NCBI GenBank assembly: GCA_951406725.2
Contig: OX597825.1
Coordinates: 20,522,001 to 20,586,000 of the forward strand
Direction: 5' to 3'
Length of the DNA: 64,000 nucleotides
Source: Octopus vulgaris
Taxonomy: Eukaryota
This document shows positions 1 through 55,145 of this stretch, piece after piece. The position numbers and the translations under genes are program-made. The notes below the pieces were generated by a model. That model was not told the origin of the DNA, made no database searches, and saw nothing but the letters and a program-made list of their open reading frames with translations. How positions within the stretch are numbered: position 1 is the first letter of the stretch; each line of letters begins with the position of its first letter.

Positions 1-59
1 ACCATCCAATCTAGAAAGCGAGTTAACGATCTTAGAATCCCGAGTCGAACAACATAACC

Positions 60-845
60 TATTTCTTTACTACCCACAGGGAGCTAAACACAGAGAGGAC
101 AAACAAGGACAGACAAACGGATTAAGTCGATTATATCGACCCCAGTGCGTAACTGGTACTTATTTAATCGACCCCGAAAGGATGAAAGGCAAAGTCGACC
201 TCGGCGGAATTTGAACTCAGAACGTAACGGCAGACGAAATACCTATTTCTTTACTACACACAGGGGGCTAAACACATAAAGGACAAACAAGGACAGACAA
301 ACGGATCAAGTCGATTACATCGACCCCAGTGCGTAAATGGTACTTAATTTATCGACCTCGAAAGGATGAAAGGCAAAGTCGACCTCGGCGGAATTTGAAC
401 TCAGAACGTAACGGCAAGCGAAATACCTATTTCTTTTACTACCCACAAGGGGCTAAACACTGAGAGGACAAACAAGGACAGACAAACGGATTAAGTCGAT
501 TACATCGACCCCAGTGCGTAAATGGTACTTAATTTATCGACCTCGAAAGGATGAAAGGCAAAGTCGACCTCGGCGGAATTTGAACTCAGAACGTAGCGGC
601 AGACGAAATACCTATTTCTTTACTACTCACAAAGGGCTAAACACAGAGAGGACAAACAAGGACAGAAAAACGGATTAAGTCGATTATATCGACCCCAATG
701 CGTAACTGGTACTTAATTTATCGACCTCGAAAGGATGAAAGGCAGAGTCGACCTCGGCGGAATTTAAACTCAGAACGTAACGGCAGAAGAAATACCGCTA
801 CGCATTTCGCCCGGCGTGCTAACGTTTCAGCCAGCTTGCCGCCTT
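60..845 (-). mobile_element. tRNA-derived SINE (family A, young tail) as one head plus four tandem ~184-bp bodies
   Basis: Minus strand reads AAGGCGGCAAGCTGGCTGAAACGTTAGCACGCCGGGCGAAATGC... with box-B-like GAGTT(C/T)AAAT and core GACTTTGCCTTTCATCCTTTCGGGGTCGAT. Body is repeated with junctions at 243/244, 427/428 and 612/613. A 16-bp TSD GTCGAACAACATAACC lies at 44-59 and 846-861. Confidence 0.92.
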
Positions 846-1233
846 GTCGAACAACATAACCACTGAGTGAAACAGCAGGAATAACAACAATAGCAATTGT
901 TTTCGTTTGTTACGCATTTCAACGAAAAAGTAACATGTAAGAATGTTTTACGGCATGTCATGTTGATAAATGAGAAACACGAAGAACGGAGACAGGTTGA
1001 GCAGTTAGATTAATAAATAATATCTCCAACTATGAGGGGGGAAAACTTGACAGAAGAATGTTAAAATTTGAGTTATATTTATTTTTTTAATATACGATAT
1101 GTAACATGGATAGTCAGAATCGTTAGAACTTTGGGCAAAATGTCATGTAGATTCAGCGTTTATTTATGGATCAATATGTTCTGCGATTAAATCTTAAACG
1201 AGTCGACTACATCTTTTATCTTTCTGAAATAGT

Positions 1234-11890: not shown

Positions 11891-11891
11891 T

Positions 11892-12090
11892 GTTTCTTTA
11901 TTAGCCACACAGGGCTGCACACAGATAGAACAAATTACAAGGTAGAGCTTTTCTTTTGAAGGTTTAAAAAAAAAAAAAAAAAAAGGAAGGGGGAGTTTCG
12001 ATCAAAAGGGATCGTAAAAGGAGAGAAAGAGGACAAAAAAAAGGGGGTTAAAAAAAAAAAGGGGGAGAGGAAAAAAAAAAAAAAAAATGA
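11892..12090 (-). mobile_element. 3' end of a LINE-like element (possibly Tx1/L1 group) abutting (GATA)n
   Basis: Minus strand has a pyrimidine-rich 3' UTR ending CCTTGTAATTTGTTCTATCTGTGTGCAGCCCTGTGTGGCTAATAAAGAAAC then (TATC)n. Clade assignment is inference. Confidence 0.5.
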
Positions 12091-16739: not shown

Positions 16740-17594
16740 GAAATAACAGCTCAATCTTCCTCCAAATACCAATTCCCCATACCAAAAATGTATAAAACAT
16801 TAGTACCATGGAATATACCAATTAGCCCCAAAACCGCACCACTACATATTCGCCCGGTGTGCTAGAAATAGCTGATAAGTCTCTCTCAAAATTCCATCTC
16901 ATTGTGTTTAGAAATAACAGCTCAATCTTCCTCCAAATACCAATTCCCCATACCAAAAATGTATAAAACATTAGTACCATGGAATATACCAATTAGCCCC
17001 AAAACCGCACCACTACATATCCGCCCGGTGTGCTAGAAATAGCTGATAAGTCTCTCTCAAAATTCCATCTCATTGTGTTTAGAAATAACAGCTCAATCTT
17101 CCTCCAAATACCAATTCCCCATACCAAAAATGTATAAAACATTAGTACCATGGAATATACCAATTAGCCCCAAAACCGCACCACTACATATCCGCCCGGT
17201 GTGCTAGAAATAGCTGATAAGTCTCTCTCAAAATTCCATCTCATTGTGTTTAGAAATAACAGCTCAATCTTCCTCCAAATACCAATTCCCCATACCAAAA
17301 ATGTATAAAACATTAGTACCATGGAATATACCAATTAGCCCCAAAACCGTACCACTACATATTCGCCCGGTGTGCTAGAAATAGCTGATAAGTCTCTCTC
17401 AAAATTCCATCTCATTGTGTTTAGAAATAACAGCTCAATCTTCCTCCAAATACCAATTCCCCATACCAAGAACGCATAAAACATTAGCACCATGGAATAT
17501 ACCAATTAGCCCAGCAATGGTACCACTACCTATTCGCCCGGTGTGCTAGAAATAGCTGGTAAGTCTCTCTCAAAATTACACCTCATGGTGTTTA
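16740..17594. repeat. Tandem repeat, 5 x 171 bp
   Basis: GAAATAACAGCTCAATCTTCCTCC recurs at 16740, 16911, 17082, 17253 and 17424; the fifth copy is the most diverged. Confidence 0.97.
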
Positions 17595-17610
17595 GAAAAG
17601 ATGGTATTGA

Positions 17611-17831
17611 GGCGGCGAGCTGGCAGAAACGTTAGCACGCCGGGCGAAAAGCGTAGCCGTATTTCCGCTGTTGTTACGTTCTGAGTTCAAATTCCGCCGA
17701 GGTCGACTTTGTCTTTCAGCCTTTCGGGGTCGATTAAATAAGTACCAGTTACGCACTGGGGTCGATATAATCAACTTAATCCGTTTGTTTGTCCTCTCTG
17801 TGTTTAGCCCCTTGTGGGTAGTAAAGAAATA
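17611..17831 (+). mobile_element. Family A SINE monomer, young tail
   Basis: Runs GGCGGCGAGCTGGCAGAAACG to GTAAAGAAATA; TSD GGTATTGA at 17603-17610 and 17832-17839. Confidence 0.93.
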
Positions 17832-21900: not shown

Positions 21901-22133
21901 AAGGTGGCGAGCTGGCAAAAACGTTAGCACGCCGGGCGAAATGCGTAGCCGTATTTCGTCTGCCTTTACGTTCTGAGTTCAAATTCCGCCGAGGTCGACT
22001 TTGCCTTTCATCCTTTCGGGGTCGATTAAATAAGTACCAGTTACGCACTGTGGTCGATATAATCGACTTGATCCGTTTGTTTGTCATTGTTTGTCCCCTC
22101 TGTGTTTAGCCCCTTGTGGGTAGTAAAGAAATA
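21901..22133 (+). mobile_element. Family A SINE monomer, young tail
   Basis: Full head and tail; TSD TATAATCATGCTAA at 21885-21898 and 22134-22147. Confidence 0.93.
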
Positions 22134-24899: not shown

Positions 24900-25347
24900 C
24901 AATGTGGCATGCAATGATCCAGTGCTATCACCTGTCCAGACATAGGAAACCGGACATTGTTGTGGTGAATAGAAAAGAAACATGTATGATAATCGACATT
25001 AGCATGTCCCGGTGACAAGAGTATTAAGGTGAAAGAAGATGAAAAAATAAACAACTATAACGGTCTAAAGTAGGAAATAAGAAGGTTATAGTCAATGATG
25101 AGAGTAGACGTGATGCCAATAGTAATTCATGCACCTGGATGTAACAGGACTCAACTACCAACATGGCTGAAAAAGATTGGTGCAAGTGTGAAGGTAGAAC
25201 ATCTACTAAAACCAGCATTGGTTGGAACTGCAAGAATTCTTCGCAGGGTTCTTGAAGCATGACCAGTACGCAAGTGCCGTCTTAGTCTGTTGGCTGTGGA
25301 CAGCTGACACTTTCCATCATACCCAGCAAAATAAGCTGTGAGTTTTC

Positions 25348-25468: not shown

Positions 25469-25499
25469 AATATTAATAATAATAATAATAATAATAATG

Positions 25500-25896
25500 C
25501 GTATCTTATTTTTATCGAACCCTAATGGATGAAAGGCAAAGTCGACCTCTGAATAATTTGAACTAATAATAATAATAATGGTTTCAACTGGTTTCAAATT
25601 GTGGCACCAGGTCACCAATTTCAGATGAGAGGTGAAAGTCGATTACATCAACCACGGTGCTCAACTGGAACTTATTTTATCAACCCTGAAAGGATGAAAG
25701 GTAAAGTTGAATAAGACGGAATTTAAACAAAGCGTTTTGTCCGGTGTGTTAACCATTCTGACTGCTCGTCGTCTTGATAACAACAACAGCAACAATAGTA
25801 ATAACAATAATAATAATAATCCTTTCTACTAAAGGCACAAGGCTTAAAATTTTGCGGATGGGGGCTAGTCGATTAAATTGACCCCAATGCGTAAGT

Positions 25897-25938
<42 letters not shown>

Positions 25939-26230
25939 TAATAATAATAATAATGATAATAACAATAGTGATGATGATGATAATAATAATAACAATAATA
26001 ATAATAACAATAATAATAATAACAATAATAATAACAATAATAATTTCAGAGTTGATAAAATAAGTTCCAGTTATTATCATCATCATCACTATTATAATAT
26101 ATTATTATCCTAAAGGATGAAAGGCAAAGTCGACTTCTGAAGAATTTGAACTTTGAACGTAAAGTCGGACGAAACGCCGGTAAGCGTTTTGTCCGGTGTG
26201 CTAACAATTCTGACAGCTCACCGCCTTGAC
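25500..26230 (-). mobile_element. Cluster of fragmented family A SINEs interleaved with (TAA)n
   Basis: GGATGAAAGG(C/T)AAAGT(C/T)GA at ~25527, ~25691 and ~26115; head remnants near 25730 and 26180. Confidence 0.75.
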
Positions 26231-30862: not shown

Positions 30863-31148
30863 CACGCCTGGCTCATAAGGGCCCGGCTTCCCGGTTCCCT
30901 TGGCGTATAGGTTCCCCCACCTGGACGGAACGCCGGTCCGTCGCAGGTGAGATGCAAGATGCAGGAAGAAAGGGTGGGAGAAAGTTGTGGCGAAAGAGTC
31001 AGCAGAAGTTCGCCATTACCTTCTGCCGGAGCCGCATGGAGCTTAGGTGTTTTGCTCATAAACACACACATCGCCCGGTCTGAGATTCGAACCCGCAATC
31101 CCTCGACCGCGTGTCCACTGCTCTAACCACTAGGCCATGTGCCGCCAC
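30863..31148 (-). mobile_element. Family B type-2 SINE
   Basis: Reverse-complement match to the 21383 copy. Confidence 0.92.
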
Positions 31149-31911
31149 ACTTTCGAGAAGGGACCCATGAATAATTTCCACAAATCTCTAGCTTGACAAT
31201 GCTACCGAGAGGACATTGCCGCTTCAGGATAAACTCGACAGGGATGACCTTCCGTCGGACGCGCCTCCCCATGATGCACGTACGACGGGACCTTCCTGCA
31301 GGTTCTCGTACAATGTTTGATCATTGTTGACTTGTGAAGCGATGTCAAACAGATTCTCTCACATGTAGGACGGGTCCTTCTATCGGTTGACTAAATCTTG
31401 AAGATCGCTCCACTGTGTTTCTTTTGCTCAAGAAAGACAGTCTGGTGATAATGGCCACAGCGGTTGTATGCTGGCTGATACTGTGAGGACTGAAGACAGA
31501 CACCTTCCTTTTGGGTCGAGGCCTCATCAACTGTTTAAAATTTCATTTATAAACGAAAGTAGGTGTTGAGAGCGATGTAGTGCTCGTGCCTCAGTAAATC
31601 TTGTAGAAAGGTGGGTGAATGTAGCGAGGATTGTCCGTGTAAGTAATCCTACTCCAAGCTGGCGCGTGTAGGCTGAGGAGTAAGGAAGCGAGAGAAGCAT
31701 ATGCCACGGTACTCCTGATTAACAAAGTACCTTGGAATCTGTGGTATCACTAGGTAACCCCTGGACGGCGATTTACCCCTTATTACGCAATTTGCTAAAA
31801 TTATTTTGTTAATTGCTATTATTTTTCTGTTCACGGGTTTTCCTAATTAATCCCCCCTACCCTTTATCTGTATATTGTCCTAAACGTTTTTCGCAGCCCT
31901 TGTGGTCAACA

Positions 31912-31912
<1 letters not shown>

Positions 31913-31986
<74 letters not shown>

Positions 31987-50096: not shown

Positions 50097-50589
50097 CGCA
50101 TGCACCATGCATCCATAGGAATATGTTAATAAAGGAAATGAATTTTTGGAATAATTTCACAAGAATTCAAAGCCGACCTATAAAAGTTATATTAGTTAAT
50201 ACTTTGTATTTCTTTCATTATATTCCACTGTTTCTGGAGGATTTCCAAATTACAAATTAAAATCTTTCCTGAACGAGGTACTTAGAGGAAGCACTTGATA
50301 GGCGTTTCAGTCAAATGTAGATAATGTGCATTCAAGCTTATTCTGAACTCTGACATATTTTTGGCATGTGATAAAATTAATTTTACTTTTGCATGTTCGT
50401 GCATTAATGTACTGGTAACTCTTAGTACGTGTGAACATAACAGTTAGATGTAATAATAATAATTAATCAGCTATGACGTACAAGACACTGAAGATATGCA
50501 ACCGTTTAAGATTATTAGAAAACCTTTGGAGAAGTGAAAATAGGGGAAGCTTTTAGAGTGGAAATAAATTTGTGTACAAGACAGCGAAC

Positions 50590-51337
50590 TCCCATAATCG
50601 TTAACAAGCTGGATAAAATGCTTAATGGTATTTCCTCCAGTTTTGCGTTCTAAGTTCAAATCCGCCGAGGTCGACTTTGCCTTTCATCTTTTCGGGGTCG
50701 ATTAAATAAGTATCAGTTACGCACTGGGGTCGATGTAATCGACTTAATACCTATGTCTGTCCTTGTTTGTCCCCTCTATGTTTAACCCCTTGTGGGTAGT
50801 AAAGAAATAGGTATTTCCTCCAGCTTTGCATTCTAAGTTTAAATTCTGCTGAGGTCGACTTTGCCTTTCATCTTTTCGGGGTCGATGAAATATGCACCAG
50901 GGAAACACTGGGGTCAATGTAATCGACTAGTCCCCTTCCTCGAAATTTCAGGCCTTGAGCCTATACTAGAAAGGATCATTATTATTATTGAATCGGCGAA
51001 TTGCACACCGAACGAAATGCTAAGCAGTATTTCGTCTGTCGCTACGTTCTGAGTTCAAATTCTGCCGAGGTCGACTTTGCCTTTTATCCTTTCGGGAACG
51101 ATAAAATAAGTACCAGTTACGCACTGAGGTCGATATAATCGACTTAATCCGTTTGTCTGTCCTTGTTTGTCCTCTTTGTGTTTAGCTCCTTGTGGATAGT
51201 AAAGAAATAAGTATTTCGTCTGTCGCTACGCTCTGAGTTCAAATTCCGCCGAGGTCGACTTAGCCTTTTATCCTTTCGGTATCGATAAAATAAGTACCAG
51301 TAAAGCAGTGGGATTGATATAATCGACTAGTCCCCCA
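50590..51337 (+). mobile_element. Two older family A SINEs, each with an internal duplication that adds the young tail
   Basis: GGTATTTCCTCCAG at 50627 and 50810; AGTATTTCGTCTGTCGCTACG at 51026 and 51210. Each second copy directly follows GTAAAGAAATA. Confidence 0.9.
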
Positions 51338-52060
51338 GCTTGAAAAACCCTGTGGAGAACTCTTGCAGTTTCGAGCAATGCTGAGGATTTTAGGTGTTCA
51401 ACCTTGCACCCATCTTTCTCAGCCATGTTGGTAGTTAAGTGCTGATACTTCCAAGTGTGCCAATTACTACTGGTATCACGTTCACTCTCTTCATTGCCCA
51501 CAACCTTTGTATTTCCCACTTCAAATCATCATAGTCGTTCTGGTTTTCTTCTTTCTCTTTGATCCTGTTGTCACCAGGACATGCCATCTCGATTATCATA
51601 CAAGTATTCTTTTTCTGTTTTGTCCACTACAACAATGTCAAGTTTCCGATGTCTGGTCTGATGGTCGCACTGAATCATTGCATCCCACACAGGTTTTGGC
51701 AATCTTCATTCTCAGTTACTCCTGAGAATTTGGTCCTACCACATTTATATGCCGTGATTTCTAGAGATCTCTCAATGGACCATTCTTACCACATTGTCAT
51801 CTCTTTTGTCATCGTGTTGTACCAATTTCGGACATTCGCTAAGAATGTGCCATACCATTTCACCCCTTTCACCACACATTCTGCATTTGTCGCTCTCATT
51901 TTTGTTTTAATTCTGCATCTTCACACAGTTCGTCCATAATGCTTGATCTTGTGCCGCGCATAAAAGCGCTTCTGTCTCTATTTTCAGGTCACTCCTCCGC
52001 ATCCATAGCTTCCAATCTTGTGTATCTGTTTTGGCGTTCGTATCTCTTGCAAACTGACCC
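51337..52060 (-). pseudogene. R4/Dong-clade LINE 3' fragment (CCHC zinc knuckle plus RLE)
   Basis: GQFARDT..WMRRSDLKIETEALLCAAQDQAL..DKCRMCGERGEMVWHILSECPKL..IVVVDK..ACPGDNRIKEKE..ALLETARVLHRV; paralogous to 24900-25260. Confidence 0.9.
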
Positions 52061-52679
52061 TTTATTTTTTTATTCCATGCTTCCTTCTTTCTTTCTTTCT
52101 TTCTTTCTTTTTCTTTCTTTCTTTCTTTCTTTCTTTTTCTTTCTTTCTTTCTTTTTGTCTTTCTTTTTTTATTTCTTCCTTTCTTTTCTTTCTTTCTTCC
52201 TTTCTTTCTTTCTTTCTTTCTTGGTTCTTTTCATCTTTATTCGCTCCACGTAAAGCTTCATGCACACCCGCAAGGATCATTGTGGTTGTGGGTTCCCAAT
52301 TCAACCCCAGATACTCGACGTTGTGCAAGAGTACACTAGTGCTTACATATGCATGTATGTGTGTATATATGTACATGTACATATATACTCATATACATGT
52401 GTATAAATATGTAATTATGAACAAATATCTAAATATATGTGTGTGTGTATGTATTTATACATCTTTATAAATATGTATGTCTTATGTACATACAAGTATA
52501 CGTTTATATATAAACACACGCATACGTACACACACATGAAGTACGAGAAAGAAACAGAAAAACAAACATAATACCTATTTATCAATATGTATGTTAATAT
52601 GTATATATATATATATGTGTGTGTATGTGTGTATGTATATATATATACATATATGTATATATATATGTGTATGTATATA

Positions 52680-52724
<45 letters not shown>

Positions 52725-53264
52725 CCGCATACATATATGCCTACACATGTGTTTACACGTCTTCTTTTTATTAAAGGCATAAAGCCTGACATGTGTTTAC
52801 ACGTGTCTCCTGCGATTGTGTGTGTACATGTATCTATGCATGGGATTGGTAAGAAACCACTGTTCACTCAGAGATGTTATATTTTACGCATCCCTCTTCG
52901 TGTTACCTTATTTTTATTAAAGGTGTCCCCATACATTTTTATTACTACTTTATGTTTAGTATAGGACAACGACGTTCCGAAATCTATGATTGGTTTAAGA
53001 CCTTTTGGGAGATTCTGCATATTAATGGAGCGGAGGCATTAGCTTTTATTACCGCGTGCAGGAGAATAACATCTTTACTAATAACTCATTGTGAGATCTG
53101 AAATGGTTTGACTGTTAACTCTTTGATTATGTTGCTCTTTTCCGTGTTTCAAACGCTGAACTGCAGCCATGTTGGGGTCATACTAGCTCTTATAGGGCTA
53201 GTTTAACGAATGTATGCTTCTCTTCCTTGAAGACTGATACTTATTCTATTTGTATCTATTTATA

Positions 53265-53495
53265 TGGCTGCGAGCTGGCAGAAACGTTAGCACTCCGGCC
53301 GAAAGGCTTAGTGGTATTTCGTCTGCCGTTACGTTCTGAGTTCAAATTCCGCCGAGGTCGACTTTGCCTTTCATCCTTTGGGGATCGATAAATTAAGTAC
53401 CAGTTACGTACTGGGGTCGATGTAATCGACTTAATCCTTTTGTTTGTTCTTGTCTGTCCCCTCTATGTTTAGCCCCTTGTGGGTAATAAAGAAAT
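53265..53495 (+). mobile_element. Family A SINE monomer nested in a minus-strand family C module
   Basis: Full head and tail; TSD TTCTATT(T/C)GTATCT. Confidence 0.9.
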
Positions 53496-53598
53496 ATTCT
53501 ATTCGTATCTTTTGCCGAGCGCCTAAATTACGGGGACGTGTACAAACTAACACTACTTGGCCAGCGGTAGTCCAAAGGGGAGGGACAAACACAATGAT

Positions 53599-53641
<43 letters not shown>

Positions 53642-53729
53642 CTTTTGTACATAAGACGTGCTTTTTTAAAGTTGTGTTCTATCAAATTCACTAATAATGC
53701 ATTGATAGGTCGAGGCTACATTGTTTACT

Positions 53730-54057
53730 TTTCTACTCTAGGCACAAGGCAACTGGTACTTAATTTATCAAACCCCGAAAGGATGAAAGACAAAGTCGAC
53801 CTCGGCGGAATTTGAACTCAGAACGTAAAGACAGACGAAATATTGCTAAGCATTCCACTAAGCGTGCTAACGTTTCTTATTTCTTTATTGCCCACAAGGG
53901 GCTAAATATACAAGGAACAAACAAGGACAGACAAAGGGATTAAGTCGAATACATCGATCCCAGTGCGTAACTGCTACTTAATTTATCGACCCCGGCAGAC
54001 GAAATACCACTAAGCACTTCGCCCGGCGCGCTAACGTTTCTGCCAGCTCACCGCCTT
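53730..54057 (-). mobile_element. Composite family A SINE: young, internally deleted copy joined to an older copy
   Basis: Minus-strand tail AATAAAGAAATA is followed by AGAAACGTTAGCACGC of a second copy. Confidence 0.8.
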
Positions 54058-55145
54058 CAGTCAGGGCTACATTACAAGACACATGTCTTAGGTGCCACAC
54101 TCTGGAACTTGATCCGAAACCACACGGGTGCTAGGAGAACAACCTAGTAACACAACCATACCCATGCCTAACCAAATTCTCTCACAAAACATTGGTTGGT
54201 CCGGATCTCTAGGACAAGGTGTCGCGCAGTGGGACTGAATCTGAAGCCACGTGGTTGCGAAACGAACTAACTTAAGATTACTTTCCCAGTTTATTTCACG
54301 TGTGTTTTATCATTGTGCGTGTGTTGCTTTTTATTTTGTTATTTGGTTTAGAAGATCTCCATGTGGGAACGTAAAATATTTTTTATTAAATGACAATATG
54401 GTCAATGATGTAACGGTTGTACCAATCCATCAGTCTTATTTACTTACATATCAATAATAATTTATGATTCATTATTAACAGTAATTATTTCGGGTTCAGC
54501 CCCATTGCGAAACATCAAAGTCAAGTGTCTTCAACTATAGCATCGAGCCGACTAATGCATTGCGGGCGAATTTAGCAGGCGGAAACTGTGAGGAAGCCTG
54601 TCATATGTATGTCTCTGTCTGTGTGACGTTGTTTCTGTTCTGTCCTCCACCACCTCATGATAACTGGTGTTGGTTTGTTTATGTCACTATAGCTTAGCTG
54701 TTTGGCGGAAAGAGACCTTTAGAACAACAATAAGAACTGGGGTTGATTTCTTCGATTAAACCTGTATAAGGCCGTGCTCAAGTTTGGCTGCAGTCCAATG
54801 AGTGATACAAGATGAAGGTAAGACATTAGTTGATGTACCGTAGCTATTTACAACATTCTGTTGTATGTAATTTTATATAGAACGGTAGTGTTAGGAACCA
54901 AGTTTTGCTTCCCTGTTCTATGACAGTTCCTCGTTATTGAACATTTGTACATATATATGTGTGTGTGTGTGTGTAAGTATATATGTATATGTATATATAT
55001 TTGTATATATGTATATGTAAATATATATGTATATATATGTGTGTGTTTGTGTGTGTATATATACACATATATTCATGTATATATGCATACACACACGCAC
55101 TCACACGCATATATATGTATGTGTATATATATATTATTCACATAT

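Follow-up and report, generated by a model that had tools for sequence, protein, structure and literature searches.

A young octopus SINE that probably inserts into resident copies of itself at a fixed position

Two doubled SINEs and the family they belong to

The window analysed here, a stretch of 64,000 nucleotides of Octopus vulgaris DNA, contains two neighbouring SINEs, A and B, whose bodies are each present twice. Both elements run head, body, young tail, second body, old tail, with a period of 183 bp in A and 184 bp in B, and the question that this locus raises is how a young tail came to stand upstream of an old-tail body. The parts of the two elements are the following.

50578..50626, forward strand: head of host SINE A, decayed and with its box A lost
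50627..50809, forward strand: added unit A1, 183 bp, with host variants in its 5' part and a young-type 3' part and tail
50810..50990, forward strand: host body A2 with its old tail (to about 50977) and (ATT)n end
about 50996..51025, forward strand: 5'-truncated head of host SINE B, placed in the (ATT)n end of A
51026..51209, forward strand: added unit B1, 184 bp, with a young tail and host variants shared in its 5' part
51210..51337, forward strand: host body B2 (body to 51328) with the first ~9 bases of its old tail, cut by a LINE
51338-52040, reverse strand: LINE fragment truncating the old tail of B, with a related piece at 25093-25258

The sequence-only reading of this DNA had described duplicated units spaced by 183-184 bp, a young tail on the upstream duplicate and an old tail on the downstream one, and the same locus-specific variants in both. 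The spacing is real and its coordinates were confirmed, and both elements have the tails in this order, although B keeps merely ~9 bases of the old tail before the LINE that cuts it from 51338. Variants are indeed shared, since towards the 5' end of the unit the two bodies have nine non-consensus bases in common in A and six in B (log-likelihood ratios against chance sharing with young copies of 20.7 and 8.6), and after this stretch the upstream unit becomes young-type in both elements. Strict privacy did not hold: some of these bases of A are also present in one other old copy, L277, and we regard them as partly old-lineage. The concern that such variants might be diagnostic of a widespread dimeric subfamily was addressed for the haplotype of A only, whose 28-base pattern has exactly two matches in the whole 2.8-Gb genome, at 50627 and 50810, both within A. 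The head of A has lost box A and diverges by 32% from the consensus, and that of B lacks its first ~25 bases. With box A gone from both heads, neither locus would be reactivated by the added unit, and the earlier suggestion that an old promoter joined to an active tail revives dead copies finds no example here; elsewhere the old head has mostly been replaced (see below).

The SINE consensus, built from fetched copies, measures 233 bp and comprises a 49-bp head, a 119-bp body and a 65-bp young tail. The family is short, non-coding and of high copy number (at least 124,639 tail ends), with target duplications of mostly 12-18 bp, as expected of a SINE. An alternative old tail, unrelated in sequence to the young one and ending in (ATT)n, occurs on the same SINE. 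The consensus head contains box-like motifs which we take to be box A and box B of a Pol III promoter in a tRNA-derived SINE; ARAGORN detected no tRNA and Rfam gave no tRNA match at 50500-54100. The element may be akin to the MetaSINE superfamily, which is defined by a 66-bp Meta-domain following the head. In the available text of PMC4758252 and PMC4824008, octopus SINEs are named merely through citation. Folding predicts a stable hairpin in the head (z -2.5), the 3' arm of which starts at position 50, the first base of the body, and no significant structure for the tail or for the junction. Old-tail copies are often placed in (ATT)n runs, including one another's ends, as B is in A; others lie on the reverse strand at 25480-26230 of the window and at loci L126, L156, L272 and L295.

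Choice of the landing site

Exact counts over the whole genome place the 8-mer that starts the body directly after 39,808 of 124,639 young tail ends, which means that about one third of young copies sit at one exact base, position 50, within other copies of the same SINE. The SINE body continued after tail and 8-mer in 30/30 loci checked, and in 304/309 over all loci. Among the 55 tail ends found in 264 kb of unselected DNA around the window, 23 lay at position 50, three within a few bases of it, three at position 17, and 26 were solo. A sample of 572 tail ends, enriched by selection and mostly from contig C1, had the junction at position 50 in 297 cases and at position 17 in 28. Old-tail copies also join at site 17 (four cases; old tail ends in AGAAA). 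Arrays contain up to six units, most of them two or three, and are partly homogenised. Between young neighbours (n=190) rare variants are shared along the whole unit, tail included (57 against a null of 7.6), with sharing dropping from 0.29 at the 5' end to 0.13 at the 3' end. This can be explained either by early template switching to a young host or by duplication or conversion at the DNA level, and since the latter explains it too, junction counts overstate the number of insertion events.

Other copies in the window include both types of junction as well as solo insertions.

44..861, reverse strand: head and four young 184-bp units within one 16-bp target duplication
53715..54056, reverse strand: old-tail host that carries a self-insertion at position 17 in box A, the second site, all within one target duplication
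17611..17831, forward strand: solo young copy whose target duplication starts like site 50
21901..22133, forward strand: solo young copy, used as the reference copy, with a target duplication unlike site 50
53265..53496, forward strand: solo young copy with a target duplication unlike site 50

The target duplications start as had been read from the letters, with GGTATT at 17611, GGTTAT at 44-861 and different bases at 21901 and 53265. The solo copy at 17611 adjoins a five-copy tandem array of 171 bp units (16740-17598, 97% match), the other strand of which carries a stretch resembling the SINE head. A major young subfamily, represented by solo copies such as those at 17611 and 21901, has a changed site of its own (G45, C50). 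C50 is present in 1/259 downstream units, a rarity that would follow either from immunity to self-insertion or from overwriting of the first base.

Solo copies have target duplications of 12-18 bp that mostly start at the tail end, and what follows the tail depends on the tail itself. Two tail subfamilies, TAG and CAA, are told apart by a variant ten bases inside the tail; TAG tails are followed by GGTA 43,293 times and by AGAAA 660 times, CAA tails 1,215 and 4,817 times. When the self-continuing next base is excluded, the counts become 3,689 vs 264 for TAG and 151 vs 1,819 for CAA (odds ratio 168), a few of which may be mutated self-junctions or tail repeats. The subfamily-linked bases are present in both copies of the target duplication and thus reflect the choice of target. 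Together these counts argue strongly for a target choice tied to the tail subfamily of the SINE, even where the target is no SINE; in a small unselected sample of solo copies the link was not significant (13:6 vs 3:4, p=0.37). The first base differs between the two copies of the target duplication in 16/76 cases, and the change is towards G in 8/10 of the GGT group and towards A in 4/4 of the CAAT group. It may be that the first base after the tail shifts towards the letter of the next unit, as if supplied by RNA, and the pattern is suggestive only: a control for an RNA-templated first base, with 41 informative cases and an anchoring method that favours matches further in, gave mismatches in 8/33 (3' copy equal to the extension of the subfamily itself) vs 0/8 in the other cases (p=0.32).

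The enzyme also contributes, as RY precedes the nick in 35/79 cases against a background of 25% and both sites, 50 and 17, fit one loose consensus, RY|RGWWW. The last six tail bases are repeated at seven junctions, as expected from slippage of the reverse transcriptase at priming. An earlier proposal placed the nick at RGTATT. Self-targeted insertion at a site starting with GGTATT stands; endonuclease preference as the sole determinant is doubtful because the preference depends on the subfamily, because a second site exists at position 17, and because in the unselected 264 kb the 8-mer lay outside SINEs in 19/62 cases but in 0/21 when behind a tail, so that a preference for eight bases is insufficient. 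A model based on circular RNA or on hairpin cleavage was dropped, as it fails to explain old-tail hosts and the second site.

The explanation that we hold to be probable, with appreciable room for doubt, is self-insertion at position 50, less often at 17, in which read-through RNA primes the reaction and homology joins the new DNA to the resident copy. Neither the young-tail nor the old-tail consensus contains a T4 run, and read-through past the tail is therefore expected: a source RNA (head-unit-unit) without such a terminator would run past its tail into the next unit. A Tx1-type protein, recruited via the shared tail, would nick a loose RY|RGWWW-like site, and the RNA extension would pair with the nicked strand, over a few bases at ordinary sites and over a long homology in SINE copies, which would win as targets for that reason. 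Because each event would in turn furnish a source RNA bearing that extension, the preference would perpetuate itself.

Target choice of non-LTR elements is usually credited to the endonuclease. Two or more Tx1 endonucleases acting at different times could have set sites 50 and 17 by DNA alone, with the 5' end still resolved by homology and the SINE subfamilies differing through different partners; we judge this unlikely. Over its last ~40 bases the young tail matches the 3' ends of LINEs which have a zf-RVT C-terminus and an ORF2 of 1,130-1,134 aa, and which are called Tx1 by resemblance. Several of these Tx1-like families have young-tail-like 3' ends, two being inserted in (TATC)n and one in (TAG)n, and two LINE ends of this kind lie in the window.

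11891-12090, reverse strand: 3' end of a young Tx1-like LINE, 5'-truncated and placed in a (TATC)n microsatellite, with relatives that have intact frames
31143-31914, forward strand: decayed Tx1-like LINE end that has a related tail and borders on (TAG)n downstream

Site-specific Tx1 families thus exist in this genome, and one of them is inserted in the SINE itself, at position 36-38 (17/19 ends, many from one segmental duplication), 14 bases upstream of the SINE's site 50 and with the 5' junction near 51-55 in two copies. Many near-identical loci on contig C31 (L308-L321 and L341-L342), each with a LINE end at SINE position 37 and an array, are copies of one locus and constitute a segmental duplication family. 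The enrichment of RY before the nick is likewise in keeping with an endonuclease-set site, as is the difference in age between the subfamilies, CAAT tails being the downstream partner of another young tail in 32 cases and the upstream one in two. However, no Tx1 family surveyed shares a target site with the SINE in the manner of SINEU and Tx1-Mar. LINE ends were found neither at site 50 (0/9 matches, for one hairpin variant only; none recognised among 12 fragments not preceded by a SINE) nor at site 17 (0/51), and the young intact family whose tail comes closest has 0/30 ends in the SINE. Moreover, site 17 is used also by old-tail copies, whose tail is unrelated, and the two subfamilies show first-base changes of opposite direction. 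Two candidate LINE ends, L223 and L233 (sites 17 and 50), were discarded since they are not repeats among the sampled loci.

5' ends and relative age of the added units

The sequence-only reading had the cDNA's 5' end resolved by homology to the resident copy, and the wider sample bears this out. No second head is present upstream of 129/133 first junctions, and donor alleles occur in array heads, which points to seamless 5' junctions formed via homology, a feature of R2 and R1 type elements; the other four of the 133 are full-length copies nested in the host, with target duplications of the ordinary kind. In arrays that end in an old tail, heads diverge from the consensus by 0.090 (n=53), compared to 0.164 for solo old copies (n=55) and 0.073 for solo young ones (n=53). 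The young-specific G45, five bases upstream of the junction, is present in 14/48 old-tail arrays (those left after dropping five segmental duplicates) and in 1/55 solo old copies. The target duplication of the host still encloses 21/53 old-tail arrays (five of these being one segmental duplication and one spurious; null mean 1.8, max 4) and 14/55 solo old copies. Because the heads are young-like, carry G45 and are still flanked by the host's target duplication, it appears that most events swapped the head of the host for that of the incoming copy, within the host's own target duplication. In the mechanism favoured above, this would be the usual course: a cDNA extending as far as the head would pair with the host's head, upstream of the nick, and take its place without a new target duplication.

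A and B represent a second type of product. Duplication of host variants, proposed earlier as the route by which old copies acquire the young tail, does occur in these two elements but is not general: it was detected in 11/61 old-host junctions, A and B among them (shuffled mean 2.1, max 7; cases mostly from the start of contig C1). In most old-host junctions both the unit and the head are donor-type, and in 47/60 old-host pairs no rare variant is common to unit and host. The duplicated host sequence reaches 20-95 bases downstream of the junction, and sharing is concentrated next to the nick (14 against a null of 2.3 in bases 1-30; further on, 5 against 2.3 and 5 against 3.4). This product is also commoner at inner junctions, which have no head upstream for pairing, with 7/21 compared to 3/35 (p=0.03). 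These observations, together with the damaged heads of A and B, fit the idea that the cDNA pairs downstream when upstream pairing is impossible, even if the damaged-head comparison is partly circular. Where the head is damaged or the junction is an inner one, the cDNA would thus pair with the host body downstream and copy the host back to the nick.

The same products might have arisen from ordinary nested insertion of full-length copies, flanked by a 12-18-bp target duplication, if the two heads later recombined and one was lost, the shared variants being due to later gene conversion between neighbours. The two-head cases (4/133; L100, L101, L106 and L151) are what such insertions leave, and donor-like heads within the host's target duplication are predicted by this scheme too. 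Nevertheless, ~97% of events would need clean-up via ~65 bp of homology, the shared host variants extend 20-95 bases past the nick and hence beyond a target duplication, they are concentrated close to the nick, and the choice of site is left unexplained; we therefore give this scheme little credence.

The relative age of the two parts is informative as well. Old-tail host bodies carry 6.3 rare variants and the adjoining units 3.2 (n=60, p=2.5e-7), 'rare' being defined against the young consensus, which somewhat inflates the old-side load. Pairwise divergence among loci averages 0.181 for host bodies (closest pair 0.076) and 0.114 for added units. On account of this load, the diversity of the hosts and the order of the CAAT tails given above, the units were added in place and later than their hosts; as far as sequence comparison can tell, they were added to older copies already resident, and dimeric masters are rejected.

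Tandem duplication or unequal exchange at the DNA level, with no reverse transcription, as has been proposed for SINE-derived satellites, is a very improbable source of the old-host junctions. It gains from the recurrence of rare variants among units of one array, tail included, and probably lengthens young arrays, but an old-tail body that never possessed a young tail cannot receive one upstream in this way; it is at odds with the 47/60 old-host pairs without a shared rare variant and with base-exact junctions equal to the target-duplication starts of solo insertions. It is likely a secondary process, insufficient for old-host junctions. A subfamily spread from a handful of dimeric masters, each made of head, young unit and old body, would place whole arrays within one target duplication and leave some arrays 5'-truncated inside a unit, both of which are seen, but it is scarcely credible given the two genome matches of A's haplotype, host bodies that are more diverse than the adjoining units and have twice their rare-variant load, and a sample in which we did not find one dimer haplotype with halves of equal age at many loci. 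Multimer retrotransposition may lie behind some young arrays; by eye, and among the matches listed, head-less truncated arrays mostly have no target duplication, and therefore give no proof of it.

Relation to known systems

In Alu subfamily conversion and in L1 chimeras, cDNA pairs with a resident copy; these are rare accidents at variable sites. The likeness is that a newly arriving retrocopy replaces, or doubles, part of a homologous copy already in place, while the octopus SINE does so at a fixed site and in about a third of young tail ends.

Closer parallels exist among site-specific elements, as far as the accessible parts of the respective papers go. For R2Ol, pairing by read-through RNA lifts insertion from 12% to 96% (PMC6530143), and for R2 upstream homology leads to seamless 5' junctions (PMC3774820); R1Bm is known to us via the citing papers PMC6007223 and PMC6530143. 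R2/R1 and the scheme proposed here have in common a read-through RNA that pairs with target sequence lying downstream of the nick, as well as a seamless 5' junction owed to a homologous cDNA end. In R2 and R1, however, the endonuclease of an autonomous element fixes the site in a host gene, whereas the octopus SINE is non-autonomous, is its own target, would use homology to its own sequence and has a site that varies with the subfamily. SINEU-3 and Tx1-Mar of crocodilians (PMC4494074) resemble it in that a Tx1-mobilised SINE accumulates, often as tandem copies, at a single site within a different repeat. There the target is a Mariner and the tandem copies sandwich an ordinary target duplication (PMC4494074), at least in the text available; here the SINE itself is the target, there is no extra head, and the site-specific LINE that was found uses another site. 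Squamate SINE satellites (PMC10702118) and bivalve tandem SINEs (PMC11481361) consist, as here, of partial units with box B and a longer terminal unit. In their accessible portions, both accounts put forward unequal recombination or repeat insertion and test neither; in contrast to these arrays, the old-tail hosts, base-exact junctions and head replacement of the octopus SINE point to insertion into residents. The parts are therefore known (R2/R1, Tx1 SINE stacking, SINE satellites), and their combination in a SINE that is its own target, with a site choice linked to the subfamily and residents overwritten at this scale, was not met in the literature searched. No report of self-targeted SINE insertion in cephalopods was found in a search whose scope left aside subscription journals, Repbase and the 1994 octopus SINE paper.

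Tentatively, and with slightly less conviction than doubt, we extend these results to a heritable, RNA-encoded self-homing: a guide flanking the tail, a switch of site from 17 to 50 upon a change of source, and tens of thousands of residents overwritten by the young subfamily. If true, this would constitute a retrotransposition-driven route to concerted evolution and to the birth of satellites, and would explain in concrete terms how tandem arrays derived from SINEs originate. Were a passenger RNA to determine where it lands through read-through homology, this would amount to natural RNA-programmed insertion, with tens of thousands of events and a testable rule, namely that an altered 3' extension moves the site. 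It would also show a SINE swapping tails and heads among resident loci, and such overwriting in place calls for caution in copy dating and in the use of SINE loci as presence/absence markers.

Finally, young intact Tx1-like LINEs with an ORF2 of about 1,132 aa were observed head-to-tail at a spacing of ~5.3 kb (L377-L390, on contigs C27, C30 and C22), with 3' ends that join 5' regions of their own; a LINE may here show the same habit of self-targeting.
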